Both the position numbers and the translations under genes were made by a program. Shown one piece after another: positions 1 through 24,978 of a stretch of DNA of 26,008 bases. How positions within the stretch are numbered: the stretch's first letter is position 1; the number at the start of each line of letters is the position of its first letter. Under the pieces are notes generated by a model, which saw only the letters and a program-made list of their open reading frames with translations, was not told the origin of the DNA and did not search any database. Origin of the DNA: Aerosakkonema funiforme BLCC-F2 (GTDB lineage Bacteria; Cyanobacteriota; Cyanobacteriia; Cyanobacteriales; Aerosakkonemataceae); NCBI RefSeq assembly GCF_041929185.1, contig NZ_JBHFNO010000043.1. One strand, 5' to 3'.

Positions 1-2
1 GC

Positions 3-9853: not shown

Positions 9854-9854
9854 G

Positions 9855-10202
9855 TAACCCACCGACACTTATCTCATCGTAGGGTGGGTTAGGCACGGGC
9901 AATAACTTCCACACTTTCAAGCAATAATTAACTCTCCGTGCCGTAACCCACCGACACTTATCTCATCGTAGGGTGGGTTAGGCACGGGCAATAACTTCCA
10001 CACTTTCAAGCAATAATTAACTCTCCGTGCCGTAACCCACCGACACTTATCTATAACATACATAAACACTTTAGCTCTTTCGGATTTATGGGTAAAAATG
10101 TTTGTTAATGTTACAGTTGAGTGTGATGGTGGGTTACGGCACGGGAACTAAATTATCGGTTGAAAGTTTTGAAATTATCGCCCGTGCCTAACCCACCCTA
10201 CG
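9855..10202. mobile_element. cluster of MITE-like hairpin elements: 89-bp unit x2.2 in direct orientation followed by one inverted copy; about 23-30 bp terminal inverted repeat CGTAGGGTGGGTTAGGCACGGGC(A/G)ATAA
   Basis: Unit ...CGTAGGGTGGGTTAGGCACGGGC-N37-CCGTGCCGTAACCCACC... starts at 9855, 9944 and 10033 (period 89). Reverse-complement copy 10128-10202 ends ...GCCCGTGCCTAACCCACCCTACG. The same family recurs at 24466-24978. Confidence 0.5.
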
Positions 10203-10227
10203 CTTAGATACTGGGCTGCTTTTACTC

Positions 10228-10836
10228 TTGCAGGGAATTGGTTATAATATGTCGATGATCGAACAAGCTGCTAATTCTGTGGTACTTGCTTCTGCTTCTA
10301 AGCCGTCTGCTACTGAGGTAGTCGATGCTTTGCTTCAGGCGGAGAAAGACGCCAGAAAGAACAATTTTTCTGATTCGTTCGATCGATTAATCGGCAATTG
10401 GCGTTTATGTTTTATTACCGGGACTAAAAAAACTCGCGCTAAGGCGGGAATTGTGCTGGGTGCGGGACGCTACATTCCTCAATTTGTCAAAATTGAATTG
10501 TCTTACTCGACTGCATCTGTAGAGATAGAAGAACAGAATTTTGAAGTCGGTCAAATTGAGAATCGGGTGACGATCGGAGCGCTAAAATTAGTGGTGAGCG
10601 GGCCTGCCAAATTTTTGCACAAGAAAAACATTTTGGCGTTTGACTTTACTCGCATGACGGTGCAGTTGTTGGGAGTGACGCTGTTTTCTGGATATATTCG
10701 TTCAGGTGAGGTGAAGTCAAAACAATTTTACCATGAAAGTGTGAGCAAGCAAGCGTTTTTTGCTTATTTTTTCATCACCGATAAGGCGATCGCAGCTAGA
10801 GGTAGAGGCGGCGGTTTGGCTATCTGGGGACGGTAA
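10228..10836 (+). CDS. PAP/fibrillin-family (plastid-lipid-associated protein-like) protein, tentative
   Basis: LIGNWRLCFITGT resembles the conserved L-x-G-x-W-x-L-x-Y-T-S fibrillin motif. C-terminal ITDKAIAARGRGGGLAIWGR resembles the fibrillin C-terminal R-x-x-RG-x-x-G...R signature. The start may be Met-8 or Met-10 (MSMIEQ). Recalled consensus, not searched. Confidence 0.45.
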   Translation: MQGIGYNMSMIEQAANSVVLASASKPSATEVVDALLQAEKDARKNNFSDSFDRLIGNWRLCFITGTKKTRAKAGIVLGAGRYIPQFVKIELSYSTASVEIEEQNFEVGQIENRVTIGALKLVVSGPAKFLHKKNILAFDFTRMTVQLLGVTLFSGYIRSGEVKSKQFYHESVSKQAFFAYFFITDKAIAARGRGGGLAIWGR

Positions 10837-10893
10837 ATGTTTGGCGGCGCTTCTGCGGTTAGTGTGGGATGGCGGAAACCCCACCCCCAACCC

Positions 10894-11050
10894 CTCCCCG
10901 TCCACGGGGAGGGGTGAAACAGGTGTAGGGGGAGGGGTGAAACAGGTGTAGGGGGAGGGGTGAAACAGGTTCGCGGGGAGGGGTGAAAGAGGTGTAGGGG
11001 GAGGGGTGAAACAGGTTCGCGGGGAGGGGTGAAAGAGAGAGGGGCTTCAG
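10894..11050. repeat. six tandem 23-bp G-rich units (AGGTGTAG/AGGTTCGC + GGGGAGGGGTGAAAC); first unit preserves a CTCCCCG-loop-GGGGAGGGGTGAAAC hairpin resembling the CRISPR repeat 3' half
   Basis: Units end at 10920, 10943, 10966, 10989, 11012 and 11035 (period 23). G-tracts GGGGAGGGG x6 on the + strand. Lies in the convergent gap between the fibrillin-like gene and the last gene of the cas operon. Confidence 0.8.
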
Positions 11051-11113
11051 GGGAAAATAAGAACTGGGAAAGAGCCGTTTTTGTTCGCGCACGGCAAAGT
11101 GCTGTCAAGATTG

Positions 11114-11734
11114 CTAATCAACGCATTTGACGCTTTTGATACTGCCATTTTTTAAGGCTGTTATTTTTACTTTTACGATCTGCCCTTGCTGGAGAGAACT
11201 CGCTTTTTTCGGTTCTTTTTCAGTCAATTTAATCGCGCCTAATATTTGATATGTCACTTTATTACCTGCAATGCCAATAACTTGGGCATCTAAGATTTGA
11301 TCGATCGCAAAATCTTGAGATTGCGTCACTTGTAAAATTTCGGCTTGCCGAGTAGATTCTATGACAGGAGCGGTAATTTCGCCGATCGGTCCCGCTTCTT
11401 TGTAGTAGCGCATTAAGCGAATTGACCACCCTAAAATTTGCAGGATAGCTGTTACATCATTTTGATAAAGTTGCAAATATTTGGTGCAAGTTCTTTCTAT
11501 GCTATCATAATATCCAGATGTTTTTTGGCTATATCCGATTCTATTACCTTGGCGGGAAAGTGTTTGCAGATAACTAAAAAATTTCGTGCCGGCATTTTCG
11601 CGATCGCTATAAGCGCGAAGATATGCCATCACTTTACCCAATTCATTTACATCAGTCTCTTCTTTGACCAATGTTTGAGCAATTCCGTGAGCAATTTGCC
11701 ATTGAATTTCGGTTAAATCGGTGGTAGTAAACAT
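11114..11734 (-). CDS. hypothetical protein, terminal gene of the type III operon (alpha-helical N-terminal half, Lys/Val-rich beta-rich C-terminal tail)
   Basis: 206 aa. Start abuts the stop of the upstream RAMP gene (11735), implying co-transcription. No recognisable motif; N-half resembles small alpha-helical Cas11-type subunits only in composition. Confidence 0.55.
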   Translation of the reverse strand: MFTTTDLTEIQWQIAHGIAQTLVKEETDVNELGKVMAYLRAYSDRENAGTKFFSYLQTLSRQGNRIGYSQKTSGYYDSIERTCTKYLQLYQNDVTAILQILGWSIRLMRYYKEAGPIGEITAPVIESTRQAEILQVTQSQDFAIDQILDAQVIGIAGNKVTYQILGAIKLTEKEPKKASSLQQGQIVKVKITALKNGSIKSVKCVD

Positions 11735-12775
11735 TTAATAAACTCCGTCTATAGGTTCTCTAGTTGTCGGCCATTGCAGAACTTGTTGTAACTCTTTCAA
11801 TTGTTGAGATTGTACTAATTGGGTGGATGCCGATCGCACGGCTTTTTGGATGAATTCCTGGAGGGAATTACCAGTCAGAGAAGGGGGTGAGGTGTTGTAA
11901 TTGCAATAGCGATCGCGCCATTCTTTCTCTTTTTCAATCCGCTGAATTTCTGTTACTTCAACTACCATCGTTCCCATACCAATTGGTTTACCGCCTCCCA
12001 CTTTTAAAGCAATGGGATTTTTACTATCTTGTCCTAACACAATCAACAGCGTTCCCAATTCGGCTAAACTTAAATTCCTAAATCCAATTTGGGTAGTAAA
12101 TATCAATTCTTTTCCCGCTTGTTGAACTGGAATACCTTGTTGTCCTTTGTCAATCGATTTAACAAAATGGTAATAAAACTTGCGTCCAGCTATTCTTCCA
12201 TTTATATAGTAGCCGGCACGTTGTTTTCTGGGTGCATAAAGTGAGGGCATAAATCCCACACTCCACTGTGCATTGTTGAGAATCGCATCAGAAAAGCGAA
12301 TCAAACCTTGCCAATCCATTGCCCCAAAAACTTGACAAGCCGGACAAAGTTTAGTATTATCTTTACATTCCCGATAACCATTCGGAATTTGACTCTGTTC
12401 TGCCTTAGTTTTGCACAAACAACTGCGCGTAATTGCTTCATAAGCAGAACGCACAACGCCTTTAAGGGAACTTCCCGGAACGATCGACTGTCGATCGCGT
12501 CCAACGGCAGTTTTGATTAGGGGGATATTTTTGGCATTTCCCGATAAGTCGCTACCCATTGCGACAACGCCAGAAGCGACAAAAGTAGCGGTTTTCACCG
12601 TTAAGCGCAGAAAGATTGTACCGCTAATGCGATCGCTTTTAAACCGATCTTGTCCAATTGGTTTATCTCGCGGTGGCGGCTGACTGGGTAGAGAAATGAG
12701 TTGATAAGGTTTTGGATTAGCAGTTTCTGGTGCAGGATTAGGTTGAGGGCGTCGAATTGGTCGATTGTTAGTCAT
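11735..12775 (-). CDS. Cas7-group RAMP with zinc finger (Csm5-like subunit of a type III-D complex)
   Basis: 346 aa. RAMP G-rich loop IVPGSSLKGVVRSAYEAI, Zn finger CKDNTKLCPACQVFG, C-terminal glycine loop KVGGGKPIGMG. Pro-rich N-terminal extension. 4-nt overlap with the upstream gene. Confidence 0.7.
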   Translation of the reverse strand: MTNNRPIRRPQPNPAPETANPKPYQLISLPSQPPPRDKPIGQDRFKSDRISGTIFLRLTVKTATFVASGVVAMGSDLSGNAKNIPLIKTAVGRDRQSIVPGSSLKGVVRSAYEAITRSCLCKTKAEQSQIPNGYRECKDNTKLCPACQVFGAMDWQGLIRFSDAILNNAQWSVGFMPSLYAPRKQRAGYYINGRIAGRKFYYHFVKSIDKGQQGIPVQQAGKELIFTTQIGFRNLSLAELGTLLIVLGQDSKNPIALKVGGGKPIGMGTMVVEVTEIQRIEKEKEWRDRYCNYNTSPPSLTGNSLQEFIQKAVRSASTQLVQSQQLKELQQVLQWPTTREPIDGVY

Positions 12776-13287
12776 GGGGATATCTCAACAGTGAGAGCGA
12801 TAAAATGTACCGTGGAAGTTTCGCGATCGATGAAATAACGTTGAGCTATTTTAACTTTGTTTGGATTATTCTTTTCATCCTTAATTATGGGATTGAGAGC
12901 GTCAGGTACAATGAATTTTTGGGGAAACCGAGTTTCATCGGGACGATAAATGTAAGCAGGTCGTTGTTCTACTTTCCACTCTATCTTTTTATCTTGTTCC
13001 TTTTTTTTATCTCGTTCCTCATCAATAGAAGTGAAAGCAGAATCTTTACCAGTTATTGACAGCAATAATACTGAATAACCTTGACCTTGTTGTTTCCAAC
13101 GCAATTCGCGATCGCAATTAAACATTTGTCCTTCTGGACTGGGAAATTCTTTTAATTCCTCTACAATTCCACTGACGCGATCTTGCCACCGAAGAAAGTA
13201 ATAAGTAGGCTTTTTCGCAAATTTATCTAGCAATTTTCTGAGATCTTCAGATGAGTCAACTTGTTTAATACCTACAAAAGGATTCAT
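12772..13287 (-). CDS. hypothetical protein occupying the position of csx19 (all1473 family) in type III-D operons
   Basis: 171 aa. ATGA-type 4-nt overlaps with both flanking RAMP genes (13284 and 12775). Lys/Glu-rich central segment. No motif recognised; assignment is positional only. Confidence 0.5.
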   Translation of the reverse strand: MNPFVGIKQVDSSEDLRKLLDKFAKKPTYYFLRWQDRVSGIVEELKEFPSPEGQMFNCDRELRWKQQGQGYSVLLLSITGKDSAFTSIDEERDKKKEQDKKIEWKVEQRPAYIYRPDETRFPQKFIVPDALNPIIKDEKNNPNKVKIAQRYFIDRETSTVHFIALTVEISP

Positions 13288-14234
13288 GCTGCTGTCCCTT
13301 GCAATATTTCACACCAAGCTTCTACAGTTTGCGAGAACAATTCACGCACTTTATCGCTCCCTTCCCAACTCTGTTGCACGCCAAAATTAAACTCAATTGG
13401 TGTTGTTTTTGGTGATGTTTCTTTCAGATCGTTAGGGGGAAAACCATAGCGGTTTCTTTCTTCATCTTCCAGAAACATTCCCGCACCCAATAAGGAAGTA
13501 AGCGGCCATTTTGTTTCTGTGCCGATCGCGCTAATTTGTTCATCTTTTATAATACAGCCAGGATATTGGACAACGGCTGAATTTAACTTAACTTCCACCA
13601 ATCCCAAACCGCGAGATTTAGCGAAACCTAATCCAAACCAACCTTGATTTAAATCGCGCAATACTAAACCGATTAATCCTAATTGTGCAAGGGTAAAATT
13701 TCTGAGATGAATTTTGGTATGAAATTCTCCGGCGGTACAAACTTGAAAATTAAATGGCCCTACAGCGACCGAACCAAACACTCTGTCAATAGCTACGCCA
13801 TTGCGTTCTTCAATTTTCAACAATTTGGGATTAACCGGATAAGCATCTTCTATTCTGACGCGACTGGCGATCGCAGTATTGCCAAACATTTGATCGGTAA
13901 AAGAAGACAATTTATAGATATCTGACGTTGATTTATTTTGCAGATATTCGTATTTGTCATTGAGTGGATCGTTTGCCCATAAACTATTTGCATTATTGGG
14001 GTCGCGGCGATCGCTTCCCACCGTCCGCACAATGCGTTCCGCATGGGCGCGAATAGCACCTTTGAGAGAACTTCCGGGTAAGTAAATTGTCCGTCCTCCG
14101 CCGTGATAGGTTTCCACAAATTCCATATCCGGTTTCGTAGGGTCAGCACCTTCTTTGCCAGATTTAATTAAGATAGGGCCAGCAGGTGTGATGGTTAATT
14201 TTATTGTACATTGATTGACAAATCGTTTAAACAT
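13284..14234 (-). CDS. csm3: Csm3 (Cas7) RAMP backbone subunit
   Basis: 316 aa. YLPGSSLKGAIRAHAERI (G-rich loop 1), QMFGNTAIASRVRIEDAY, NGVAIDRVFGSVAVGPFNFQVCTAG (thumb), GFAKSRGLGLVEVKL (glycine loop). Confidence 0.8.
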   Translation of the reverse strand: MFKRFVNQCTIKLTITPAGPILIKSGKEGADPTKPDMEFVETYHGGGRTIYLPGSSLKGAIRAHAERIVRTVGSDRRDPNNANSLWANDPLNDKYEYLQNKSTSDIYKLSSFTDQMFGNTAIASRVRIEDAYPVNPKLLKIEERNGVAIDRVFGSVAVGPFNFQVCTAGEFHTKIHLRNFTLAQLGLIGLVLRDLNQGWFGLGFAKSRGLGLVEVKLNSAVVQYPGCIIKDEQISAIGTETKWPLTSLLGAGMFLEDEERNRYGFPPNDLKETSPKTTPIEFNFGVQQSWEGSDKVRELFSQTVEAWCEILQGTAA

Positions 14235-15126
14235 TGCTGTTTTCCTCGGCAGTGGTATTAGCAGACATGAAAGTTCTTAAATGGGTAATCAAAGCATTTG
14301 TCCATTCCTGTTTGAGGAAAGCAATTCTTTCTGGATAACATGAGTAAATATCCATTTTTCCGTTAACCAGATTTTGCAGGTAATTTAGTAATAATTCTGG
14401 ATCGTCTTCTGCATCAAACCATTGCATTTCTTTAATATCCAATTTCACTACACCCAATCCGCGAGAACGTCCGCCGCCTAACGGAATTTGTTCGGTTTCA
14501 AATTGGTGTAACCCGATGGTTAATAAACCTAATTCCCAAGGTTCGGCGTTTTCAACTACTGCTTTAAACTCAAATTGCGTTCCTGCCGGTACAACTTGAA
14601 AATCGTATAATTTCGCATCAGCAGCAGTTTCGGTATCGCGATCGATCGCAACTCCATCTCGTTCTTGATATTGTCCAAACCAACTATCTGGTAATACCGT
14701 TAAATCGCGCACTTGAAATTTACTCGCAATCCAAGGAGAACCGAATAAGTGAGAAGCTAAATCGGTTTCTTTTAAAATTGCAGTGGTGAGGTCAAAATCA
14801 TCTTTGTTTTCGTCCTTAAGTTTCTTGATTTCATCAGCTTTTAGCGACCATTCCTCCTCTACGGCGGGATTGGCGACTAATTTGCGTAGGGCAATGCCCT
14901 TGTTGAAGGCATCGCTTCCCACAATCCCGCGCAGGAAGCTTTCCAAACGCGATCGCAAAGCACCTTTAAAACTCGACCCCGGAATTAAAGGTCGTCCCAC
15001 CGCATCTTTAATTACTGGTAAATCGGAACCGATTGGTTCTGTGGAACGTCCCGCGCCAATTCGCAAAGCGGTGATAGTGGTGAGAGTTCCGCTGATTTCC
15101 AAACGACTTTTGAAAGTATCAAACAT
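14227..15126 (-). CDS. csm3: Csm3 (Cas7) RAMP backbone subunit, second paralog
   Basis: 299 aa. LIPGSSFKGALRSRLE, HLFGSPWIASKFQVRD, DGVAIDRDTETAADAKLYDFQVV, GGGRSRGLGVVKLD. 8-nt overlap with the downstream csm3. Confidence 0.8.
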   Translation of the reverse strand: MFDTFKSRLEISGTLTTITALRIGAGRSTEPIGSDLPVIKDAVGRPLIPGSSFKGALRSRLESFLRGIVGSDAFNKGIALRKLVANPAVEEEWSLKADEIKKLKDENKDDFDLTTAILKETDLASHLFGSPWIASKFQVRDLTVLPDSWFGQYQERDGVAIDRDTETAADAKLYDFQVVPAGTQFEFKAVVENAEPWELGLLTIGLHQFETEQIPLGGGRSRGLGVVKLDIKEMQWFDAEDDPELLLNYLQNLVNGKMDIYSCYPERIAFLKQEWTNALITHLRTFMSANTTAEENSNV

Positions 15127-15140
15127 AGTTTACCTTATTT

Positions 15141-15707
15141 TCAATTTAAACTCAACCAGCTAAACACATCTTGCGCGGATAACTGTAAATCTTCCAGAGA
15201 ACTTAACACGGGTAAATTGTCTTGATTTTCCTTAGTTTCTGGTTGTTGACCTGGACGAAAAACCATGATAATTTTCTCTTCAGGATCGATTAACCAGCCT
15301 AATTCTGTTCCCGCATTTAAACAAAAAAGGATGTTACCAATCACGCGAGTTGAGCTTTGTTCTGGGGAAAGAATTTCAATTACCCAATCTGGATGAATGG
15401 AAAAAGAATTTTCGATTTCGCCGTTAGCATCTAAAGGGATACGTTGCCAAGAAAAAACGCTGATATCTGGCACAATTGAACGACCGCCAAAGGTGCAACG
15501 CAATTCTGTAAAAGCACTAGCTAAACGATTAGGTTCGCCTACCCTATTAATTTCGGTTGAGAAGCGAGTTTGCAATCGGCTATGTTTTCCTTTTGGCATA
15601 GGTTTTTGATAGATTTGTCCGTCTATATATTCACTAGCTGGTTTAGTTTCTGGGAGTTGCAGAAATTCGGCTAATGATATTTTGGTGGAAAGTTTTGTGG
15701 ATGTCAT
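15141..15707 (-). CDS. Uma2-family (DUF820) PD-(D/E)xK endonuclease inserted inside the type III effector operon
   Basis: 188 aa. Hallmark Uma2 motifs LAEFLQLPE...EYIDGQI (N-terminal) and VPDISV...PDWVIEILSPEQS (PD...EIxSP core). 29-nt and 14-nt gaps to the flanking csm2 and csm3 genes on the same strand. Confidence 0.75.
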   Translation of the reverse strand: MTSTKLSTKISLAEFLQLPETKPASEYIDGQIYQKPMPKGKHSRLQTRFSTEINRVGEPNRLASAFTELRCTFGGRSIVPDISVFSWQRIPLDANGEIENSFSIHPDWVIEILSPEQSSTRVIGNILFCLNAGTELGWLIDPEEKIIMVFRPGQQPETKENQDNLPVLSSLEDLQLSAQDVFSWLSLN

Positions 15708-15736
15708 GGTTGAACAATTGATAATTTAAAAACAAA

Positions 15737-16144
15737 TTACTTGGAATTGATGTATTTCAAGTATCGAGCGCCATACCCCAAGTAGCGGCGAATTAATTCT
15801 AACCAAATAGATTTGAAATCAGAACCAGAAATTTCTTTGTGAATAACATTAGCTTTCTGCTTGATTTGAGTATCAATATCATTGACAATTTTTGCTGCTA
15901 ATGAATTGTCACCTCTTCCCCATTTCTTATCGCGCCCGACTTGATAGCGCAAGAAATTTTTAATCACTTCTGGGCTATCGGTTGTATCTGCAACGCGCAC
16001 TAAGTTGCGAAATTGAGTTTCTTGTAAGTCGCCATAGGATTGACGATTGTCTAAAGCTGCTTGAATCCATAACACTAAATCATCTTCAGCAAGACGGATG
16101 TTTTTTTGTACTTTGAGTTCTATCTGTTGTTCTGCTAGGTTCAT
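15737..16144 (-). CDS. csm2: Csm2 (Cas11) small subunit
   Basis: 135 aa, all-alpha composition. LQETQFRNLVRV matches the Csm2 LTTSQ(I/L)RK motif; NFLRYQVGRDKK and RRYLGYGARYLKY match the (V/F)xYQxGRE and C-terminal aromatic/Gly motifs of Csm2 (compared with the S. thermophilus Csm2 sequence recalled from memory). ATGA overlap with the upstream RAMP gene. Confidence 0.6.
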   Translation of the reverse strand: MNLAEQQIELKVQKNIRLAEDDLVLWIQAALDNRQSYGDLQETQFRNLVRVADTTDSPEVIKNFLRYQVGRDKKWGRGDNSLAAKIVNDIDTQIKQKANVIHKEISGSDFKSIWLELIRRYLGYGARYLKYINSK

Positions 16145-17376
16145 ACAGCGTTTTCCCGAAATACTAAATGAAATTCATTGCAAACCTGAACTTGACCGAA
16201 TCCTTCCGAAGTACGTTCCCCAACTCCTTTTAATTCTAAATTCCCTAATGCTCGATACCAAATGTCTGGCGAACTTGTACTAAACAAATACACGGCACCT
16301 TTATTGGTAACTAATTCTACATCTTTCATCAATCCCCATGCGGTATTCCAGCCAGAACGATAATCGTAGCTGGTATATGCAACGTGCAGTTTTAAAGAAG
16401 GGTCATCGATCGCAGCATACTTTTTCAACATTCTATCATTAATTACTGTGGTACGTTGCCAATTTTCAGTAAAAATGGCATCGGATTGTAAATCAATGGT
16501 GAAATAGGTGCGGTCTAATAGCAAATCTTGCTGGGTTTCGCCAAAGATTTCTCCCCACTTTTGCCATCTTTTTTTAAGTTCATCGTTAAACTTGGCGATC
16601 CGAGGTTCTACTGTCGCTGCGGCGTTACCTATGTCTGCGATAATTTCCGCTTTTCCTAATCCCCGCGATGCAGAACCACCCAATCGAAAAGAATGGCGAT
16701 TGATAAAATCAGTTAGGTTATTAGCTAATTCCTCATTGTCTAATAAAATTTTGCTGCGATAGGTAGCAGGTTCCTCTTTTCCTTCCACTTCATTTAATAC
16801 TTCAATGCTGTAAAGCACCTGTTCTTCAGAAGTGGCGCGACGGCGGTTGATACCGACTCGCGTTAGCAGTCGAGTCGTGGTTGAAAGTTGATAGTAATTG
16901 TTACCGACACAAGCATAAAAACCGCTATAAGGTTCTACTCTTCCACAGTCTACCGGACAATTTGGATCGTAAGGATGGTTGTAACCTCCGGCGCAAAAAC
17001 GATCGATCAACGTATCGAAGACACCGTGCTTTTTGGGATCTGTTTTAAAACCGGGATTGGTTTTAGAACTAACTGCTGTGGCGGGGAGTACCTGAATTGG
17101 ATTAGGTAGCAAGGTTGGTTTATCTTGAATTTTGGCGATCGCAGGATAACCATTCTGGAAAATTGCCGCATTTTCGCCTAAGAATAAGCTGTGGAAGTCG
17201 TCACCTGCTTCTGGTGTGGGGGATTCAGATTCGCGGAGGATTCCAGATGCGATCGCACCCCTGATTACCGATGCGGGTATATAGCTTTCGGCTTCACTGA
17301 CGGAACCACCAGGCTTTTGTCGTCCAATGGCTAACGGTGAAGCTGCTGTAATTGTTAGTTGAATTTCGTAAGTCAT
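16141..17376 (-). CDS. Cas5-group RAMP (Csx10/Csm4-like large RAMP subunit)
   Basis: 411 aa. N-terminal LTITAASPLAIG...YIPASVIRGAIASGIL (Cas5/Csm4-type start) and C-terminal glycine loop GGSASRGLGKAEI. The size fits Csx10 of type III-D. Confidence 0.65.
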   Translation of the reverse strand: MTYEIQLTITAASPLAIGRQKPGGSVSEAESYIPASVIRGAIASGILRESESPTPEAGDDFHSLFLGENAAIFQNGYPAIAKIQDKPTLLPNPIQVLPATAVSSKTNPGFKTDPKKHGVFDTLIDRFCAGGYNHPYDPNCPVDCGRVEPYSGFYACVGNNYYQLSTTTRLLTRVGINRRRATSEEQVLYSIEVLNEVEGKEEPATYRSKILLDNEELANNLTDFINRHSFRLGGSASRGLGKAEIIADIGNAAATVEPRIAKFNDELKKRWQKWGEIFGETQQDLLLDRTYFTIDLQSDAIFTENWQRTTVINDRMLKKYAAIDDPSLKLHVAYTSYDYRSGWNTAWGLMKDVELVTNKGAVYLFSTSSPDIWYRALGNLELKGVGERTSEGFGQVQVCNEFHLVFRENAV

Positions 17377-17378
17377 TC

Positions 17379-17411: not shown

Positions 17412-17427
17412 TCTATGTCGGATATTT

Positions 17428-18141: not shown

Positions 18142-18245
18142 CAGTTTCCTCCCGTTGATATTGTATCTTGAATGCTTGCAATATCCATCGGTTAAGAATA
18201 TTTAGACCTTGGAAGGGCGAAGCATTCGGACAGAAAACTTAGGGT

Positions 18246-20774
18246 TTAAGTAGATAAATTGTCGCCCGAATGCTTCGCCCCTACATTTAACCTATCTGTA
18301 TCTTGAATTTTGGCGTCAAGGGTTTGCGAAACTTCGATAAAAGGATAAAGGTCTACTAACTCGCGCCAAATAGTTTCGTAAGTGGACTTTTTTAATAAGT
18401 TTAAAATCACACTTTGTAACTGAACTTGACTGGTTGGTAAAAGTTTTAAGGAAAACATTAGAACTACTTTCCTGAAGATTCCAGCCTTCTCAAAAAGCCA
18501 AGGGGCTAAGTAACCATCATTTGTTGCTGCTTGACACCAAGCATCCTCAAAATTTTCTTTTAGTAACTGTTGTTCTTTTGAACCCAAACGCACGCGGAAA
18601 TAACGATAGTTGAGGATGGCGGTGTTTTTGCCTCGTTCCAGTAAACTGCGAATTTGATAGAGTTGCGATCGCGGAAATCCCGACTGTTTTATTGCTTTGG
18701 CTGTTTCCAGCAGTCCGCCTAGTTCATGCAGCGTGTAAGGTGCAGCATGAAGTTTGAGTTTTTGGTTATCTTTGATCGATTTGGTTAAACCTTCTCGGCG
18801 GAACGAACTGATATTTGATGATATCATTGTAACTGATTTCATCACCAAAAAGTCAACCGTACCGCCATAATAATGATAGTGTTTTTTCAACTCTTTAGCA
18901 CGCGCTTTCGCAGATTTGAGTAACTGTTCCGTTAATTTTTGAGCGTAATAAATCGGCGTGGTGTAGGCGGTAATCAAAACACCGATCGACATACTCAATT
19001 GACATTCGGAGGGGTTCTGTGGCGGCGGTTGGTAACGATGACAGGCGATTGATTTCGCATCATCTCGCTGGGATGCGGGAATTTCATATCTTTTTCCTAA
19101 ATCAGTTAATCGCTTCTCGAATTCTTCACCGATCGTTTGCGCGATCGCCAATGCTTTATCTGCTGGTACAATCAGCAATACATCGTCACCGCCAATAGTT
19201 AAAATTTCAAAGGGATGAATGACAACACCATTTCGATGTTGATGTTCTTTTCCAGTTAAGCCACTTAACCGATGGGGCTTTAGATGCGTGAGAGCTTCAT
19301 AAACTGAATTTTCCGTTGCATCGAAAATATCTTCACTAAACTGAGCGTAATCCGCTGGAGTTTTAATCTTTTGGATGTAGCCACCCATATTGTTACCATC
19401 TGCATAAATGTAAGCAACAAATCCATTGCTAGCATTGCCGATTTCTGTGAGCGATCGCGCTTGCTGAATTCCGCTATTGCTAAAACCTGCGTAATATTTG
19501 CGCCAACGTTCTAACTTGAGTAAAAACCGCTCAAACTTATTGACCCAACTTTCTACTTCTCCGGGTTGCCATTCAAGTTTTGTGCGTTCGTACCATTCTC
19601 GTTCTTGTTCTTCCTTCGAGATTTGACCTATTATTCGCTTACGCGCTAACGCTTCCGAAAACCAAGGTTCGTTGGGAAGCTCAGTCGCATGAAAAATAGC
19701 AGAACGGCAATCCCCTTCATCCCTTTTCAAGTAAGGATGAGTATCAAAAATCGGCGGGTAGCAACGGCTGGGACGTTCTGAACCAGGTAAATCGTTACCG
19801 CTGCGTCGGTGATTAAATTGTGCGGCTAATTTACCTGCTAATTCGTTAAAACTTTTGCGATTATTAAATAATTCTCCCCAATTTTCTTCTCCTTCTAAGC
19901 TACCGAAGTAAGCTTTTACTAAATCATTGTTGCGATTTTTTTCGTGATTGTTGCGATTTTTTTCGTACCAATCTAGCCAGAGTGTTTGTTCAATTGGATC
20001 GCGCAGCAACCCAAAACGCACTTCTAGTAATTTGAAGCTATCCCCAACAGCACAAGAGTTAGCCGTTAAAGTTTGTTCGGTATAACGCCGTTCAATCGCA
20101 TTCGCTAAATCGTCGATGTAAGCAGCAGGACAAAATGCGAGGATATTACCACCCGTTGAATAGATTATCAGTTCTGGGATGAGAGCATCTGAAAGCTTGA
20201 GATTATCTGCATCACCGGGAAAGCAGTTATCTAACCACTGTTTTACTTCTTCGCAGTGTGCTGTGTAACGGGGAGACTCTGGCGGTTTTCCGAAAAAAGC
20301 GGGTAAGTCGATCAGATTGATTCGATCGAGTAGTGCAGAAGCACCCCGGATGTCTTGCAGCTTAGCCGCTTCAAAAACGTAACCTTTAATTTTGGTAGCA
20401 CCGCCATAAACTAAGCCGATGGGAGTATTCCACGCTTGAGGATTTTCCCGTTGCAAGGCTTCAAAGGTTTGACGTAGTTTTTCAGCGGTGTCTGGAAACT
20501 TCAGGTTATCGATTTTTTGCGCTTGTTCTAGAAATGGTTGAATTGCAGCTGGAATACTTTTTCCTTCTTTGAGAGTCTGTTTAATTGTCTGCAACTCGGA
20601 TAGGTCGAACAGAGGTGTGGGTCGATCGCCCCAGGCGAGACACCAAGCGATTCCTATCGAAAGCTTCGTTGATATTGTCATCATACCATTTTGCAAAGTT
20701 TTCACTCTAAAGGACTTTTTTCCAAATCTGGGTAATGCCAACATTCCCAAACTCTTTGCTGTATTTTGACACAC
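18246..20774 (-). CDS. cas10: Cas10 (Csm1/Cmr2-type large subunit) with intact GGDD cyclase palm motif and no recognisable N-terminal HD nuclease motif
   Basis: 842 aa as listed. The start at 20774 is GTG; alternative ATG starts lie at residues 11 and 31. Palm motifs AYIYADGNNMGG and ILTIGGDDVLLIVPAD, Cys cluster, GASALLDRI. The first 150 residues contain no H-D dyad in HD-domain context. Confidence 0.85.
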   Translation of the reverse strand: MCQNTAKSLGMLALPRFGKKSFRVKTLQNGMMTISTKLSIGIAWCLAWGDRPTPLFDLSELQTIKQTLKEGKSIPAAIQPFLEQAQKIDNLKFPDTAEKLRQTFEALQRENPQAWNTPIGLVYGGATKIKGYVFEAAKLQDIRGASALLDRINLIDLPAFFGKPPESPRYTAHCEEVKQWLDNCFPGDADNLKLSDALIPELIIYSTGGNILAFCPAAYIDDLANAIERRYTEQTLTANSCAVGDSFKLLEVRFGLLRDPIEQTLWLDWYEKNRNNHEKNRNNDLVKAYFGSLEGEENWGELFNNRKSFNELAGKLAAQFNHRRSGNDLPGSERPSRCYPPIFDTHPYLKRDEGDCRSAIFHATELPNEPWFSEALARKRIIGQISKEEQEREWYERTKLEWQPGEVESWVNKFERFLLKLERWRKYYAGFSNSGIQQARSLTEIGNASNGFVAYIYADGNNMGGYIQKIKTPADYAQFSEDIFDATENSVYEALTHLKPHRLSGLTGKEHQHRNGVVIHPFEILTIGGDDVLLIVPADKALAIAQTIGEEFEKRLTDLGKRYEIPASQRDDAKSIACHRYQPPPQNPSECQLSMSIGVLITAYTTPIYYAQKLTEQLLKSAKARAKELKKHYHYYGGTVDFLVMKSVTMISSNISSFRREGLTKSIKDNQKLKLHAAPYTLHELGGLLETAKAIKQSGFPRSQLYQIRSLLERGKNTAILNYRYFRVRLGSKEQQLLKENFEDAWCQAATNDGYLAPWLFEKAGIFRKVVLMFSLKLLPTSQVQLQSVILNLLKKSTYETIWRELVDLYPFIEVSQTLDAKIQDTDRLNVGAKHSGDNLST

Positions 20775-21032
20775 CTATGGAAGACCCCCGTTCCAATTAA
20801 GCAACTAGACTGGTTGCCAAGTGCGGATCTTACACCTGCTTATAAAGCCCGCCAGCAATTCAAATCGCTGGCTAATAGTAAAAGTCGTCTTTAGACGACT
20901 GGTTAAAGAATACCAGTCTACTTTAGTAGACTTGAGCTATCAGCCTGGGGTTTGAACCCCAGGCGGGCTATTGGTAACGGTGAGTACACCCGGATTAAAG
21001 ACCAGATGTATCAGCACATCATCTTTAGCTTT
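20775..21032 (-). promoter_or_regulatory. cas10 upstream leader with three consecutive stem-loops and a thrice-repeated GACTGGT(T/A) motif
   Basis: Hairpins AGTCGTC-TTTA-GACGACT (20883-20900), AGTCTAC-TTTA-GTAGACT (20915-20932) and CCTGGGGT-TTGA-ACCCCAGG (20944-20963). AGACTGGTT at 20807, CGACTGGTT at 20896 and its reverse complement ACCAGTCT at 20912. Confidence 0.3.
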
Positions 21033-21452
21033 CTATTCAAGTTTGATAGAGAGTTTTAACGCCAACCCCAAACGCTGGCATAACAAAGAAAGGCGGACAC
21101 TTAGGCAAAAATTCTTTGTCAGAGCTTGAATCGCTGCTAAAGCAATAGATTGAGCCGTTGAATTATTAAGTTTAGCAGGCTCGGTTTCAATTTTGGAGGA
21201 ATCCTGGTTGATGGGGAGATATCCTTGCTGGTAAGCGGGCTTTTCGGCTAGTGGCATCTGCAAAATGCTTACTTGTGTGGGTGTAGTAACCCGTGTAGCC
21301 TGCTCCGTAAACAGTATGTTTGTAAGATTGAATGGCTGTACAACCTTGTGTAACGCTGGGTTGTAGAAAGTTTGACAGTTGCCCAACTGCAAATAACTCA
21401 AGCAGTTAGACTTTTCAACTACGGTAGTTCCGTAGAAATCTGCTGTTTTCAT
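21033..21452 (-). CDS. hypothetical ORF upstream of cas10 (low confidence, may be non-coding leader)
   Basis: 139 aa. Low-complexity Leu/Ser/Gln-rich product with no motif. Same strand as cas10, separated from it by 258 bp of hairpin-rich DNA. Confidence 0.25.
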   Translation of the reverse strand: MKTADFYGTTVVEKSNCLSYLQLGNCQTFYNPALHKVVQPFNLTNILFTEQATRVTTPTQVSILQMPLAEKPAYQQGYLPINQDSSKIETEPAKLNNSTAQSIALAAIQALTKNFCLSVRLSLLCQRLGLALKLSIKLE

Positions 21453-21495
21453 GTACTTGTCCTTGATTTGTAAATTCGCTTGTCTCAGATGCTAC

Positions 21496-21586
21496 TAGAC
21501 ATCTCCAGAAATTAAAGGTGCGTTAGCTGGAACCCTTGTAGAGACGTTTCATGAAACGTCTCTATAATGTTTTTTGGAGATGTCTA
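21496..21586 (+). terminator. nested palindrome: 12-bp outer inverted repeats (TAGACATCTCCA / TGGAGATGTCTA) enclosing a 12-13 bp perfect hairpin (TAGAGACGTTTC-AT-GAAACGTCTCTA) followed by T6
   Basis: Inner hairpin 21538-21565, T-run 21570-21575: an intrinsic-terminator shape on the + strand. Sits between the 139-aa ORF and the CRISPR leader. Confidence 0.4.
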
Positions 21587-21691
21587 CTGAATGTTGAGTC
21601 AGTTAAATCTTTAGTTGGTGGTGGCCACGCTGGAATTTTCATATGTTTCTCTACAAACTAATGTCTACAATTATAGTATTGAAACTAAGTA

Positions 21692-21725
21692 TTGACTTTT
21701 AGAGAAAATAAGAGTATCTTATATA
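21692..21725 (+). promoter_or_regulatory. candidate sigma70-type promoter in the AT-rich leader of the mini-array (TTGACT-N17-TATCTT)
   Basis: ttgact 21692-21697, 17-nt spacer, tatctt 21715-21720, followed by tatatat. Lies about 15 nt upstream of the first repeat. Confidence 0.25.
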
Positions 21726-21737
21726 TGTATAGTTAAA

Positions 21738-21929
21738 CAAAAACCTAAAAACTCCCCGTAAGGGGATTGAAACTCGCTCTTTCAGTGCTGACACACTTGT
21801 CGAGTCAGTGTTCAATACTTCCCCGCAAGGGGACTAAAACCTCAAAACTATTGCACAGTGCTTATTGCTAAGTAAACCAGCGATCGGCTACTACCCCTTG
21901 CTGGAAAAGGGGCAGTAGCTTATGAAAGC
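21738..21929 (+). CRISPR. decayed CRISPR mini-array: two recognisable repeats with one 31-nt spacer (period 67) plus a third strongly degenerate repeat-like hairpin
   Basis: R1 ...AACTCCCCGTAAGGGGATTGAAAC ends at 21773. R2 ...ACTTCCCCGCAAGGGGACTAAAAC ends at 21840. R3-like CTACCCCTTGCTGGAAAAGGGGCAGTAGCTTATGAAAGC ends at 21929. Conserved CCCCG-NN-GGGG hairpin plus (A/C)TTGAAAC 3' handle, as in cyanobacterial type III-associated repeats (recalled). An isolated ATTGAAAC also occurs at 21678. Confidence 0.6.
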
Positions 21930-21974
21930 TTTGTTCTGGTGTGTCGGCTTATTCCCCAAATGGGGACGGAAAGA

Positions 21975-22571
21975 TTACGAACTCGCCATCGCACCTTGCT
22001 GCAACTCTCTCACCACCCATTCCAATTCCTCGACCATCCAACTGCTACTCAACTGGCGGTAAATCTGCAATTGTTCTTGATAAAGCCATAACACCCCTTC
22101 CTTACCGCCTCGGAAATAATGCCAAATTTCTTCGCCAAATTGCCTAAAATTAACCAACATAGTCCGCGCATTGTGCAACTTATCCGCCAGCATCACGCGC
22201 TGGACTGGCGGACAAGCATCGCGTAACTGTTGGAGATATTGCTGTTTGTGTTCCCTCCAAGTCGGATATAAACTCGGTTCTGGCTCGGTGCAACCTTCTA
22301 TAATATGGAAAACGCGATCGCCAAATCGCTGCAAAATTTCCGCCTTCGTTACTTCTCCCCCTCGGTCTTCCAGCGCATCGTGCAATAAAGCAGAAATTGC
22401 CTCATCTTCATCTCCTCCATCTTCCAACACCAAAGCCGCGACGCTCAACAAATGGGCAATATAAGGAGTACCTGTAATTTTCCGTTGTTGGTCGCCATGA
22501 AGTTGCGCCGCATATACCAACGCTTCCTGAAAACGCGAAGTTAAAATTGTCAAACACCGTTCATTCTTCAT
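21975..22571 (-). CDS. small alarmone hydrolase (SAH; Mesh1/SpoT-like HD-domain (p)ppGpp/(p)ppApp pyrophosphohydrolase family)
   Basis: 198 aa. GTPYIAHLLSVA...AISALLHDALED...ILQRFGDRV...MLADKLHN align motif-by-motif with human Mesh1 (GTPYINHPIGVA...AALLHDTVEDT...HFGAQV...KLADKLYN; sequence recalled from memory). ATG lies 11 nt inside the 3' end of the upstream WYL gene (overlap in a different frame). Confidence 0.8.
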   Translation of the reverse strand: MKNERCLTILTSRFQEALVYAAQLHGDQQRKITGTPYIAHLLSVAALVLEDGGDEDEAISALLHDALEDRGGEVTKAEILQRFGDRVFHIIEGCTEPEPSLYPTWREHKQQYLQQLRDACPPVQRVMLADKLHNARTMLVNFRQFGEEIWHYFRGGKEGVLWLYQEQLQIYRQLSSSWMVEELEWVVRELQQGAMASS

Positions 22572-23976
22572 AATTTTTCCATTCTCGTTCGATTTCTTTC
22601 CTCGCCTGTTCTCGTAATTCCACAGGGAGGAGAATTTCTACATTCGGTCGCCACGCACGCAAGCGCTGCATTACATTAGGATCGCCTTGGCGATATTGCG
22701 CTTGGTAATAAGCATCTTGGGGAGAACGTTTGCGCCAAATATTTAACATCTTTTGTTGTTGTTCTCCCTTTAAGTTCTGCCGAATTAATCGTTCTACTTC
22801 TTGATATGCCACTCGCGCAAAGGTAGCATGGCGCATAGTATTGCGGATGTAGCGATTATCCCACTCGCGATCGAACCTCAATAGTAGCAGTTGTGCGGGT
22901 TGATAGTAATCAAAACCCCAAACTTCTGCGATCGCTAATTGGATATCATCGGGAATAGGCAGAGTATTCTTTTGATATCGCTGTTTCAGCGCCACTGGAA
23001 CTTGCGAATCTTCCCAACTCAAAGGGATCGAATCCTGAATGCGATCGAGTCGATAATTGCGAAAATCTAATTTTCCCGATTCGTCTTGCGGAACTTCGCC
23101 AAACGCACACAGATACGGCCCTCTCTGATAATAATAAATGCAAACCGGATAAACTACCACCGACAAAGTTGTTTGCCAAACCGCACTTTCATAACTTAAC
23201 AAAATCGGCGGTACAACTTCCTTTTGCCAAAGTTCCCGCAGTTGTGCTTGCCATTCCTCCACGCGATCGATCGAGTCTTGGGGAATCACATATTCCAGAT
23301 GGATAAAAAAGCGCTGCTGACCATTCAATCGCGTCGAAAGATTATCTGCGATCGCAGCCAAATCCGGTTGCGTGAGAAAATCCAAATTGTAAGCTATCAG
23401 ACGAGAATCTGATTTTTGGATCGAACTCGGCGTCCGTGGATATTTCTTAACCCGATAATACCGATTTCCTTGGCGTTTCAGCCACCCGATTTCTATCAAA
23501 ACTTGCAAATCGCCATAAAGCGATCGTCTTGTCAAGCCAAACAAACGAGTATCGTGCAACAATTCTTTAAGGTTATCCGGTAACAAATGATGTTCCCGCA
23601 AAGATTGTTCAAACGATCGCTCTTTTTCCTGCACTTCCGGCTTCCCTAATTCCCCTTTCCACTTTGACTGAGTTAAATTGAAATTAGAGCCAAATAACCA
23701 AGCCGCAACAGTTTTGGCACAACGGCATTTCGGGTCGTGCAACGCCGGAATTTCTTCTTCTCTAGTATGAGTCGCAGTAAAAAAAGCATCTCGCCATTCA
23801 GGATAAGTAAAATTTTCCGGCAAATTCAACTTAATGCCGGCTTCCCCATACAGAAAGTGCAGCCACACCCACAACCGCACCGCCTGTAGCAATCTTTGTT
23901 TTAAATCTCCCCGCGCCAGCCATTGCAGTAGTTCCACGCGAGGAGGTTCATTCCAAAAGGGGCCGATCGTTTCCAA
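22561..23976 (-). CDS. WYL-domain transcriptional regulator (wHTH + WYL + C-terminal extension), CRISPR-associated type
   Basis: 471 aa. wHTH-like LLHDTRLFGLTRRSLYGDLQVLIEIGWLKRQGNRYYRV. WYL-domain signature VVVYPVCIYYYQRGPYLCAFGE...FRNYRLDRIQ (YL...RLDRI). Translationally coupled to the SAH gene. Confidence 0.7.
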   Translation of the reverse strand: METIGPFWNEPPRVELLQWLARGDLKQRLLQAVRLWVWLHFLYGEAGIKLNLPENFTYPEWRDAFFTATHTREEEIPALHDPKCRCAKTVAAWLFGSNFNLTQSKWKGELGKPEVQEKERSFEQSLREHHLLPDNLKELLHDTRLFGLTRRSLYGDLQVLIEIGWLKRQGNRYYRVKKYPRTPSSIQKSDSRLIAYNLDFLTQPDLAAIADNLSTRLNGQQRFFIHLEYVIPQDSIDRVEEWQAQLRELWQKEVVPPILLSYESAVWQTTLSVVVYPVCIYYYQRGPYLCAFGEVPQDESGKLDFRNYRLDRIQDSIPLSWEDSQVPVALKQRYQKNTLPIPDDIQLAIAEVWGFDYYQPAQLLLLRFDREWDNRYIRNTMRHATFARVAYQEVERLIRQNLKGEQQQKMLNIWRKRSPQDAYYQAQYRQGDPNVMQRLRAWRPNVEILLPVELREQARKEIEREWKNYEE

Positions 23977-24089
23977 GCTACTCTCCCGATTTCAGCGATT
24001 TGCCTTCCTTTCTAAGTATGCCTCATCTTGGAAGCAGGTGCTTCCACCAGTTTGATACAGTAGCAATAACTCAATGAACCTATTATTTA
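23977..24089. promoter_or_regulatory. divergent intergenic region between the WYL regulator and csx3-like gene, with small palindrome GGAAGC-AGGT-GCTTCC
   Basis: 113 bp between divergent starts; palindrome at about 24034-24049. Confidence 0.3.
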
Positions 24090-24446
24090 ATGTCAGCCAT
24101 TCAATTACAACTGTTTCGGGAGCAAACCCAGTCAGGTCTGACCTACCAACACCTGCACATCCAAATCAATACACCGGATGGACTGATTGCACCAGCCGAC
24201 CTGAAAAATTTATCCCTACCGGAGGAAATGGTCTGGAGTCAAGGCGTTGTCATTGAAGGTAAAGCGCCAATTTGGTTGTACGCCTATTTAGTTCACGCTT
24301 GTCACCCCGCCGCTTGGGTAGCTTGCTTCGACCCCCGCTTAGAAGGTGCAGTTATAATTGCTACACACAGTCGCCAAGTCGCACTCGGAGATATTCTCAA
24401 ACTCAACTTACCCGCAGCCATATTTCGCAAAACAACAGGTACGTAG
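24090..24446 (+). CDS. csx3: Csx3/Crn3-like cyclic-oligoadenylate ring nuclease (stand-alone, catalytic His/Asp/His pattern present)
   Basis: 118 aa, the size of stand-alone Csx3. GKAPIWLYAYLVHACHPAAWVACFDPRLEGAVIIATHSRQVALGD has H-(+9)-D-(+12)-H spacing similar to the His60/Asp69/His80 Mn site of A. fulgidus Csx3 (numbers recalled, not checked). Adjacent to type III genes; has a paralog at 25014. Confidence 0.5.
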   Translation: MSAIQLQLFREQTQSGLTYQHLHIQINTPDGLIAPADLKNLSLPEEMVWSQGVVIEGKAPIWLYAYLVHACHPAAWVACFDPRLEGAVIIATHSRQVALGDILKLNLPAAIFRKTTGT

Positions 24447-24465
24447 TGATAATAAAAACTTATTA

Positions 24466-24978
24466 ATCGTAGGGTGGGTTAGGCACGGGCAATAATTTCA
24501 ATACTTTCGATCGATAATTAAGTTCCCGTGCCGTAACCCACCATCCCACCTACCTGTAACATTGACAAACATTTTCCACCATAAACCCTCTAGACCCGAA
24601 GATTGTACCCTATCAACCCAAAAGAACCAAGCGTTAAAACGCAACAACATACGAAGGTCTGTAAATCTAGCTCTTTCAAGTTTATGCTTCGCTTTTGTAA
24701 CAGACAATTGTGATGGTGGGTTACGGCACGGACAGTTAATTATTAGTTTTTTGAGAGAAATTATCGCCCGTGCCTAACCCACCCTACAGGTTACAAAAAG
24801 CTATCAACCCAAAAGAACCAAGCGTTAAAACGCAACAACATACGAAGGTCTGTAAATCTAGCTCTTTCAAGTTTTTGGTTCGCTTTTGTAACAGAAAATT
24901 GTGATGGTGGGTTACGGCACGGACAGTTAATTATTAGTTTTTTGAGAGAAATTATCGCCCGTGCCTAACCCACCCTAC
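24466..24978. mobile_element. second cluster of the same MITE-like hairpin family: one forward copy, then a 191-bp unit duplicated in tandem, each ending in an inverted copy
   Basis: Forward end ATCGTAGGGTGGGTTAGGCACGGGCAATAAT at 24466-24542. Reverse ends ...ATTATCGCCCGTGCCTAACCCACCCTAC at 24715-24786 and 24906-24977. CTATCAACCC... unit starts at 24610 and 24801. Internal segment (TAGCTCTTTC...GTAACAG...TGTGATGGTGGGTT) is homologous to the left cluster at 10060-10135. Confidence 0.5.

Follow-up and report, generated by a model that had tools for sequence, protein, structure and literature searches.

Do repeats that stand on both sides of a CRISPR-Cas locus mark the ends of a mobile cassette, or have they settled at a locus that was already in place? 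This question is raised by a 26,008-nt stretch of DNA from the cyanobacterium Aerosakkonema funiforme BLCC-F2 (contig NZ_JBHFNO010000043.1), referred to here as the window, in which two clusters of hairpin-forming repeats lie ~14 kb apart around genes of a type III-D CRISPR-Cas system. A preliminary description took the segment between the clusters (the island) to be, or to have been, a mobile cassette. Based on the anatomy of the repeat family and on a comparison of the locus among relatives, we find it very probable that each cluster is a local accumulation of truncated copies of one non-autonomous transposable element of ~171 nt (a miniature element with inverted repeats, MITE), and that these copies settled in two spacers between the genes of a type III-D locus that was already resident. 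The type III-D neighbourhood is chromosomal and conserved in place within the genus, and the repeats colonised the locus after its assembly and were not the vehicle of the island.

Two clusters of hairpin units in the window

The 22-mer GTAGGGTGGGTTAGGCACGGGC has six exact occurrences in the window, at 9879 (+), 9968 (+), 10201 (−), 24469 (+), 24787 (−), and 24978 (−), and the same number of copies of its stem partner, CGTGCCGTAACCCACC, is found at positions matching these sites. In the shuffled-sequence control, GTAGGGTGGGTTAGGCACGGGC had 0 occurrences. Delimited by the family consensus described below, the clusters extend from 9854 to 10210 (left) and from 24443 to 24978 (right). A self-comparison of the window and a search with the family consensus detected nothing similar to the hairpin units in the rest of the window outside both clusters. 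Each ~74-nt unit consists of a 16–17 bp stem and a ~37-nt loop (ΔG of −15.6 to −19.4 kcal/mol; z of −3.8 to −5.3). These results agree with the preliminary description in three respects, i.e., the confinement of the copies to the two clusters (6/6 GTAGGGTGGGTTAGGCACGGGC matches), the presence of direct and inverted copies on both sides of the cas genes (strands +, +, − on the left and +, −, − on the right), and the common internal homology TAGCTCTTTC...GTAACAG...TGTGATGGTGGGTT, which is the tail of the element (10072–10140 and 24668–24725). We note that short-read contigs for the window locus break at the repeats.

The hairpin is the core of a dispersed ~171-nt MITE

An alignment of 90 copies with their flanks revealed that the hairpin is only the core of an element of ~171 nt. 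An intact copy starts with GGCTCTCCCGTTTTTGTGGTGATAATAAAAAC-TTATCTAATC, continues with the core (GTAGGGTGGGTTAGGCACGGGC, a ~35-nt loop, and CCGTGCCGTAACCCACC), and finishes with ATCCCACTTATCTGTAACA...CCATAAAYCCGAAAGAGCC; the whole element is GGCTCTCCCGTTTTTGTGGTGATAATAAAAACTTATCTAATC, then the core, and then ATCCCACTTATCTGTAACATAAACAAACATTTTTCACCATAAAYCCGAAAGAGCC. The 24 intact copies have imperfect 19-nt terminal inverted repeats (TIRs), in which GGCTCTCCCGTTTTTGTGG pairs with CCATAAAYCCGAAAGAGCC (reverse complement GGCTCTTTCGGRTTTATGG). The family has several generic features of a MITE, i.e., a small size (171 nt, compared with a limit of ~300 nt), no coding capacity, multiple dispersed copies, and TIRs, and its initial characterisation as a hairpin-forming, MITE-like repeat family (dispersed, multi-copy, and with stable stems) stands.

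The distribution of the family was assessed by scanning one genome per species, 185,579 genomes in all, for exact matches to the first 20 nt of the core, which gives counts that are lower bounds. The scan returned 84 stretches in total, 57 of which, with at least 63 exact matches on 40 contigs, are from Aerosakkonema sp. BLCC-F183. Other stretches are from an Oscillatoriales metagenome-assembled genome (MAG) (9), another MAG (6), Symploca, Coleofasciculus, Allocoleopsis, and Geitlerinema. The preliminary description had proposed that hundreds of scattered genomic copies would make the flanking arrangement unremarkable; the family is indeed dispersed, with at least 63 copies in the sister genome, but the copies counted amount to dozens and not hundreds.

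On the 880-kb plasmid NC_014533.1 of Gloeothece verrucosa PCC 7822, we identified 13 matching places, among them a full-length copy with 74% identity and the same termini. A BLAST search of the consensus against the PLSDB plasmids gave matches only on Gloeothece PCC 7822. The presence of a full-length relative on this megaplasmid supports that the family is old and widespread. The best full-length relative outside the Oscillatoriales (L098 3001–3165; NC_014533.1 58103–58267) lies directly after a WYL-domain gene beside a type I-D cas3'. A literature search for the literal repeat sequence strings yielded no relevant paper. Altogether, this is an ordinary MITE family that is dispersed in Aerosakkonema and occurs in several cyanobacterial orders. 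The consensus of such a widespread cyanobacterial MITE, with its ISL3-type ends (see below) and GTAG-tagged core, is useful for annotation and for explaining breaks in short-read assemblies.

All six units in the window are defective

The left cluster comprises an 89-nt tandem (×2.2, 100% identical) and one inverted unit. The forward part (9854–10072, +) is the tandem and holds the hairpin cores of units L1 and L2. L1 (core 9879–9952) aligns to consensus positions 31–129 and L2 (core 9968–10041) to positions 31–149; both are without the 5' TIR, and L2 keeps part of the tail. The inverted unit L3 (10074–10210, −; core 10128–10201) is a 5'-truncated short form that aligns to consensus positions 34–170 with 93% identity. 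Its 3' TIR-type end, AGCTCTTTCGGATTTATGG, at 10073/10074 points left, and its GTAG head points to the island. The best matches to L3 elsewhere are two BLCC-F183 copies (L049, 96%; L010, 94%).

The right cluster comprises one unit and a 191-nt tandem (×1.9, 98% identical). The first unit, R1 (24443–24597, +; core 24469–24542), extends from consensus position 16 to 162–171 and has lost the first ~15 nt of the 5' TIR. It terminates in the variant CCATAAACCCTCTAGACCC, an end variant also present in L051, L073, and L074. R1 abuts the csx3 stop codon (TAG, 24444–24446); that R1 supplied this stop codon was ruled out, as csx3 of the FACHB strain has the same ...GGTACGTAG end. In the tandem (24610–24978, −), each 191-nt period consists of ~59 nt of non-family sequence and a head-truncated copy, i.e., R2 (24669–24787; core 24715–24787; consensus 43–138) and R3 (24860–24978; core 24906–24978; consensus 43–144), both of which begin exactly at GTAG. 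R2 and R3 were duplicated jointly with 59 nt of unrelated sequence, of which no further copy was found within ~0.8 Mb of loci.

All six units are therefore defective: none (0/6) keeps the 5' terminal repeat and none (0/6) has both ends. Because of the two local tandem duplications (89 and 191 nt), the number of units in the window is inflated; about four products of insertion or truncation, together with the two duplications, account for the six units. In the family consensus, the 8-nt sequence ACTTATCT is present on either side of the hairpin, which makes slippage or unequal exchange a likely source of the 89-nt tandem.

The type III-D locus is in place in relatives without the flanking clusters

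If the 14-kb segment were a composite cassette, the flanking MITE copies would be its ends, and it would either be moved by a transposase that acts on these ends at their outer side or be excised or inverted between the repeats. The geometry is indeed that of a composite transposon or of MITE-bracketed capture, in which two related inverted elements with terminal-repeat-type ends facing outward enclose a block of genes: when one of them is inverted, L3 (10069–10206, −) and R1 (24464–24601, +) match with 85% identity over 138 nt, and the 3' TIR-type end of each, at 10073 and 24597, respectively, points outward. In addition, the direct copies have exact tracts of up to 28–31 nt in common. We compared the locus with that in relatives, using FACHB-1355 (L092) for the right site and a 14-kb Logan contig (L099, SRR30638120) for BLCC-F183.

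The locus in A. funiforme FACHB-1375 (L089, GCA_014696265.1) is collinear with window positions 1–19168 at 90–96% identity and without inversion. The gene order is xdh, a 195-aa gene, and the type III-D genes, and it is the same in FACHB-1355 (L090, GCA_014748295.1). In both strains, the spacer downstream of xdh contains ~126 nt of short repeats of the GGGGTTAGG type and no family copy. On the right, L092 has a distance of 115 nt between csx3 and csx3-P-loop (the gene for a Csx3 protein with a fused P-loop NTPase), with one 76-nt hairpin, GTAGGGTGTGTTACGCACGG...CCGTGCCTAACGCACCCTAC, in between. The window has 532 nt at this position, and the sequences to the left and right of it align base for base. 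Microseira BLCC-F43 has the same order of the genes for Cas10, HD_4, and WYL, csx3, and csx3-P-loop, with a 39-nt csx3 spacer that contains no family copy. Because csx3 and csx3-P-loop are adjacent in the FACHB strain and in Microseira, the right cluster lies within a conserved module and not at its edge.

The island is found at the same locus in FACHB-1375, FACHB-1355, and BLCC-F183. The preliminary description had proposed a search for empty sites, and the outcome is the opposite of what a cassette would predict: the FACHB strains lack the left copy and have nothing but a solo hairpin at the right site, and the island remains in place where the repeats are missing. Sequence identity to the FACHB strain is ~95% across the left cluster and into 10241–10848, falling only after this point, and ~91% on either side of the right cluster. 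Inside the island, the density of the highly iterated palindrome HIP1 is host-like (15 sites in 14 kb), and the best Cas10 match outside the genus is only 65% identical, which argues against a cassette. Planktothrix PCC 11201 was considered as an insertion-site reference and rejected as too distant; its xdh is 71% identical and is followed by xdhC and other genes, none of which is a CRISPR gene.

The positions of the clusters also differ from those suggested initially, i.e., immediately outside the first and last genes of the island. The gene next to the left cluster, a 202-aa open reading frame (ORF) (10228–10836), is not recognisable as a cas gene in a profile search, and on the right, the cluster has a csx3 gene on either side. 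The csx3-NTPase gene, which had been placed just outside the right boundary, is separated by the cluster from the csx3 gene with which it forms a conserved pair, and hence there is no island edge at this position. The 14.5-kb segment is not flanked by a duplication of its target, with AACACTTT at 10065–10072 vs GAAGATTG at 24598–24605, and the flanking copies, none of which keeps the 5' TIR, are defective.

Separate clusters at such distances are a common feature of the BLCC-F183 genome. Among its ~59 clusters, there are 8 pairs that are 1.4–18 kb apart, which means that ~27% of the clusters have a neighbouring cluster within 20 kb. In five BLCC-F183 loci, closely spaced pairs of copies (1–5 kb) bracket ordinary genes (DUF5996, MAPEG, pseudouridine synthase, two-component, MazG, and solute-binding). 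We consider it exceedingly improbable that the 14-kb segment is a composite mobile cassette, and the comparative test at this locus gives an answer opposite to that proposal. Nothing indicates that the repeats moved or delimit the island. The only plausible effect of the repeats on the island is that they provide short homology tracts (≤31 nt exact) for a rare RecA-type rearrangement. These findings call for caution: where a cyanobacterial genome is rich in repeats, a pair of MITE clusters on either side of a defence locus is no evidence of a transposon.

Exchange of the Cas10 half of the effector module inside the operon

A further point in favour of a cassette is that part of the cas module was indeed exchanged between strains. 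In BLCC-F183, the number of annotated genes between xdh (MFB2967467) and csx3-P-loop (MFB2967483), which are on one contig, equals that in the window (MFB2918434 and MFB2918450, also on the same contig), and these two flanking genes are 99.7% and 100% identical, respectively, to the window DNA. Compared with L099, window positions 11001–13750, i.e., the Cas7-like half, are about 100% identical, 13751–15127 are 87–97% identical, 15128–21728 are 64–78% identical or unalignable, and 21729–22237 are 90–97% identical. The diverged block (13751–21728, ~7–8 kb) holds the Cas10/Csx10/RAMP half of the operon. The BLCC-F183 version of this block has a gene for a Csm6-like Cas_APE2256 protein, no Uma2 gene, and another Csx10/Cas10 allele; the FACHB strain has the window-type Csx10/Cas10 allele (~90% identity).

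From the near-identical flanks and the diverged block, we conclude that recombination within the operon replaced the Cas10 half of the effector. The alignments suggest that this swap, by which near-identical strains came to differ in half of the effector module, was recent. The breakpoints at ~13.75 and ~21.7 kb are ~3.5 kb and ~2.7 kb, respectively, inside the repeat clusters. Hence, the block 13751–21728 is a real exchanged cassette that is not bounded by repeats, and the boundaries of the repeats differ from the breakpoints observed. Together with the presence of the island at the same site in relatives, the lack of a composite target duplication, and the defective copies, these internal breakpoints contradict the proposal that the 14-kb type III-D segment is or was a mobile cassette. 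The swap illustrates how type III modules diversify.

With respect to individual genes, the gene for a Uma2-family endonuclease in the cas operon is present in the window and the FACHB strain and absent from BLCC-F183, and the gene for the Csm6-like Cas_APE2256 (CARF) protein is present in the FACHB strain and BLCC-F183 and missing from the window (window 15141–15707 and 15712–15733; L089 17518–18660; L099 6448–7608). Because the presence of Cas_APE2256 varies, the complement of cyclic oligoadenylate (cOA) effectors differs among close strains.

Termini and target duplications are consistent with an ISL3-type element

Three of the 24 intact copies are flanked by AT-rich target duplications of 7–8 bp (AATTTATT, GATTTAAT, and TTCTAAC). 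In a control with mismatched pairs, using the best of 25 boundary shifts, a perfect match was never obtained and a match within one mismatch was obtained in 1.4%. In an alignment by eye, 17/24 positions of the TIR match the right inverted repeat (IRR) of ISArsp7, a member of the ISL3 family with the inverted repeat GGCTCTTCGCGTTTCGTGGTGAAT and 8-bp direct repeats (PMC6305408). A 187-bp MITE of Microcystis with the inverted terminal repeat GGCTCTTCG and 8-nt repeats was ascribed by its authors to ISL3 transposases (PMC11448079). The family described here starts with GGCTCT, in common with the Microcystis ISL3 MITE, and has an 8-bp duplication where one is present.

The MITE of Microcystis aeruginosa PCC 7806 (PMC11448079) is similar in several further respects: the host is a cyanobacterium, the element is ~170–190 nt long, non-coding, and forms a stem-loop, its TIRs start with GGCTCT..., it makes 8-nt duplications, and its copies, tens in each genome, lie mostly in intergenic regions and often close to defence or toxin-antitoxin genes and mobile genes. 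In contrast to the Microcystis element, the Aerosakkonema family retains the duplication in only 3/24 intact copies and has the GTAG-tagged 74-nt hairpin module, which is also found alone. The two are different sequence families; in the BLAST search, the consensus had no match to the Microcystis plasmids reported to carry that MITE.

The Nezha MITE of Anabaena and Nostoc is also comparable in the accounts given of it (Zhou et al. 2008, as related in PMC3184786 and PMC6042816): it is cyanobacterial, 130–170 bp long, and has a stable secondary structure; its TIRs are in common with those of the insertion sequence ISNpu3, and filled and empty sites are polymorphic between close relatives. Nezha has a 10-bp direct repeat (CATTATCTAC) vs 8 bp here, a distinction drawn from these accounts of Nezha. 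The BLAST search with the consensus gave no match on any Nostoc or Anabaena plasmid.

Based on these similarities, we infer that an ISL3-family DDE transposase, one that duplicates AT-rich targets of 8 bp, may mobilise, or may once have mobilised, copies of the family in trans. After insertion, the copies would decay by truncation, and slippage or unequal exchange between short internal direct repeats would cause the local expansion into the 89-nt and 191-nt tandems.

Several observations weigh against the idea that the clusters consist of decayed copies of an ISL3-mobilised MITE. Twenty-one of the 24 intact copies have no target duplication. Eight short-form copies share one internal start position, mostly right after a flanking YAG, and solo hairpins without TIRs exist (L092; R2 and R3); the DDE cut-and-paste model leaves both of these unaccounted for. 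In ~0.7 Mb around the copies, no ISL3-type gene was found between a pair of TIRs, and every TIR match there is a MITE copy. The copy number is that of the sister genome BLCC-F183 and not of the window strain's own genome, and the BLCC-F183 contig with xdh through csx3-P-loop gave no match in the 20-mer scan. A contig from BLCC-F183 reads (L002 1–28) has the 20-mer directly upstream of csx3-P-loop, in conflict with the scan of the same locus. This discrepancy may be caused by a difference in assembly or masking, for which reason, too, the copy counts from the scan are lower bounds.

The hairpin core resembles GTAG REPs

Because most copies are without duplications, the short forms are mostly located after YAG, and solo hairpins exist, an alternative in which the core is a repetitive extragenic palindrome (REP/REPIN) stands. 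The core would then be moved as single-stranded DNA by a REP-associated tyrosine (Y1/HUH) transposase (RAYT), and the ISL3-like outer ends would belong to a carrier that had received the REP doublet by insertion. GTAG REPs and REPINs (Di Nocera et al. 2013, PMC3733652) have a 5' GTAG tag followed by an imperfect palindrome, have a high copy number, are intergenic, and occur as singles, head-to-head or tail-to-tail dimers, and arrays. Similarly, every core of the family described here starts with GTAG, followed by the 16–17 bp stem. Among cyanobacteria, both filamentous and unicellular forms have been reported to carry GTAG families, Cyanothece/Gloeothece PCC 7822 being one of them, and in Anabaena, GTAG dimers are nested in longer palindromes (PMC3733652). 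The solo core in L092 is bounded by GTAG...CTAC, and in two short forms (L087 and L057), the start is immediately preceded by another copy's GTAG or TTAG. Finally, in four proteobacterial MAGs, classical short-loop GTAG REPs, e.g., GTAGGGTGGGTTAGGCACGGAGTTTGTGCCGTAACCCACC, have precisely the 20-mer GTAGGGTGGGTTAGGCACGG as their 5' arm, with a chance expectation of about one exact match in the whole genome collection.

Classical REPs are, however, 20–40 nt long with loops of 3–15 nt, whereas the core here is 74 nt with a ~37-nt loop and is mostly part of a 171-nt element with TIRs at its ends; with a short loop, the same arm was found only in the proteobacterial MAGs. The cleanest copies have outer TIRs and 8-bp duplications, and the outer ends are conserved along with the core across orders. 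For Y1 or RAYT genes, tblastn with IS200 TnpA and Escherichia coli RayT queries, a weak test, gave no match better than E = 0.04 in the ~0.7 Mb of loci and the window. Among the supplements of PMC3733652, we found no matching consensus. On balance, we regard a REP moved by a RAYT as an unlikely explanation of the core.

The two ideas could be combined in a two-layer hybrid, in which a REP-like GTAG hairpin is nested in an ISL3-type MITE and the inner module also spreads alone, possibly favouring the edges of defence loci. The solo GTAG...CTAC hairpins, the tandem arrays, and the short forms just after YAG are pointers to a spread of the inner module on its own; nevertheless, we consider this hybrid quite doubtful. 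If true, two transposition chemistries would act on one repeat family across cyanobacterial orders. Likewise, an accumulation at defence loci (here, beside the type I-D/WYL locus of the Gloeothece plasmid, and near toxin-antitoxin systems for the Microcystis relative) would, if true, provide homology for shuffling defence modules.

Two observations on the arrangement and occurrence of the hairpins were made in these comparisons. First, some family copies are nested or abutting, one starting right after another's GTAGGGTGGGTTAG and one right after TTATTTAATCGTAG, and in a cyanobacterial MAG from a tar biofilm, the hairpin forms a 131-nt tandem array with three units (L057 3797–4184; L087 5240–5290; L068 2156–2490). 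Taken together, these arrangements suggest that insertions or breaks favour a site at the GTAG tag or close to it. Second, the proteobacterial contigs with the 20-mer (L030, L044, L064, and L071) have GC contents of 0.50–0.58 and are from Gamma-, Alpha-, and Betaproteobacteria.

Hairpins as possible RNA elements

Both clusters are located between co-directional genes, and a hairpin is present in the csx3/csx3-P-loop spacer in two lineages. These observations, as well as the stable stems and the known influence of REPs and MITEs on mRNA stability (PMC3733652, PMC3184786), are in agreement with an RNA role, in which the hairpins are kept for an effect on transcripts (termination, insulation, or stabilisation) in the spacer that separates xdh from the next gene and in that of csx3 and csx3-P-loop. 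In scans of both clusters, U-tract terminators and promoter signals were at or below the shuffle expectation. When the whole window was compared with Rfam, with the threshold set permissively, the repeats had no match, and the sole sub-threshold match lies elsewhere. Among 96 distinct cores, only 3 sequences have double changes at each of 2–3 stem pairs, and the covariation is uninformative because the stem positions are almost invariant. Moreover, the 39-nt spacer of Microseira is without the hairpin, and the left site is empty in the FACHB strains. An RNA role thus seems very unlikely as the reason for the presence of the repeats, and we return to the preferred interpretation that truncated MITE copies settled in the two spacers of the resident locus.

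Gene content of the window and minor observations

To the left of the repeats, the window contains an xdh-type operon (Fer2, a FAD-binding subunit, and a molybdopterin subunit at 7714–9819). The type III-D effector genes (11114–20774, −) are a 206-aa gene, RAMP-346, a 171-aa gene, RAMP-316, Csx7 (TIGR02581, 247 bits), the Uma2 gene inserted in the cas operon (15141–15707), a 135-aa gene, Csx10 (16141–17376, −; TIGR02674, 447 bits), RAMP-237, and Cas10 (18246–20774, −), which has a Cas10 palm domain. The combination of Csx10, Cas10, and several Csx7/Cas7-like RAMPs is that of a type III-D system. They are followed by HD_4 (21975–22571, −), a TIGR03985/WYL gene (22561–23976, −), csx3 (24090–24446, +), and csx3-P-loop (25014–25946, +; 310 aa; Walker A GGSPDSGKS), with the right repeat cluster between the latter two. 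Repeat searches detected no CRISPR array in the window.

The spacer downstream of xdh contains heptamers of the short tandemly repeated repetitive (STRR) type, with (AAAGTCA) ×4.7 at 9823–9855 of the window. In FACHB-1375 (L089 12126–12251), this spacer has an inverted pair of GGGGTTAGG and CCCTAATCC runs around a CT-rich centre; the whole xdh-downstream spacer is replaced between the window and FACHB lineages. Between the 202-aa ORF and the first cas gene (10877–11060), the window has a 23-nt G-rich tandem, GGGGAGGGGTGAAACAGGTGTAG, with ~5.6 copies, which is absent from the FACHB strain. The first 38–46 nt of this region, i.e., the flank directly ahead of the tandem, are found with 91–100% identity in four BLCC-F183 loci (L020, L026, L042, and L060), and a short-read contig ends at the tandem region.

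Beside the gene for a D12 adenine methyltransferase, the window has a PDDEXK_11 nuclease gene (876–1358), and L089 has genes for an AAA_15/DUF2813 ATPase and a 218-aa protein (1798–3764); with this one, the 26-kb stretch has two variable slots of a defence-like kind. Finally, the interior of cas10 contains a perfect 20-nt direct repeat, ATTGTTGCGATTTTTTTCGT (19926–19966; ×2 with a 21-nt period), which would be an in-frame duplication of seven codons.

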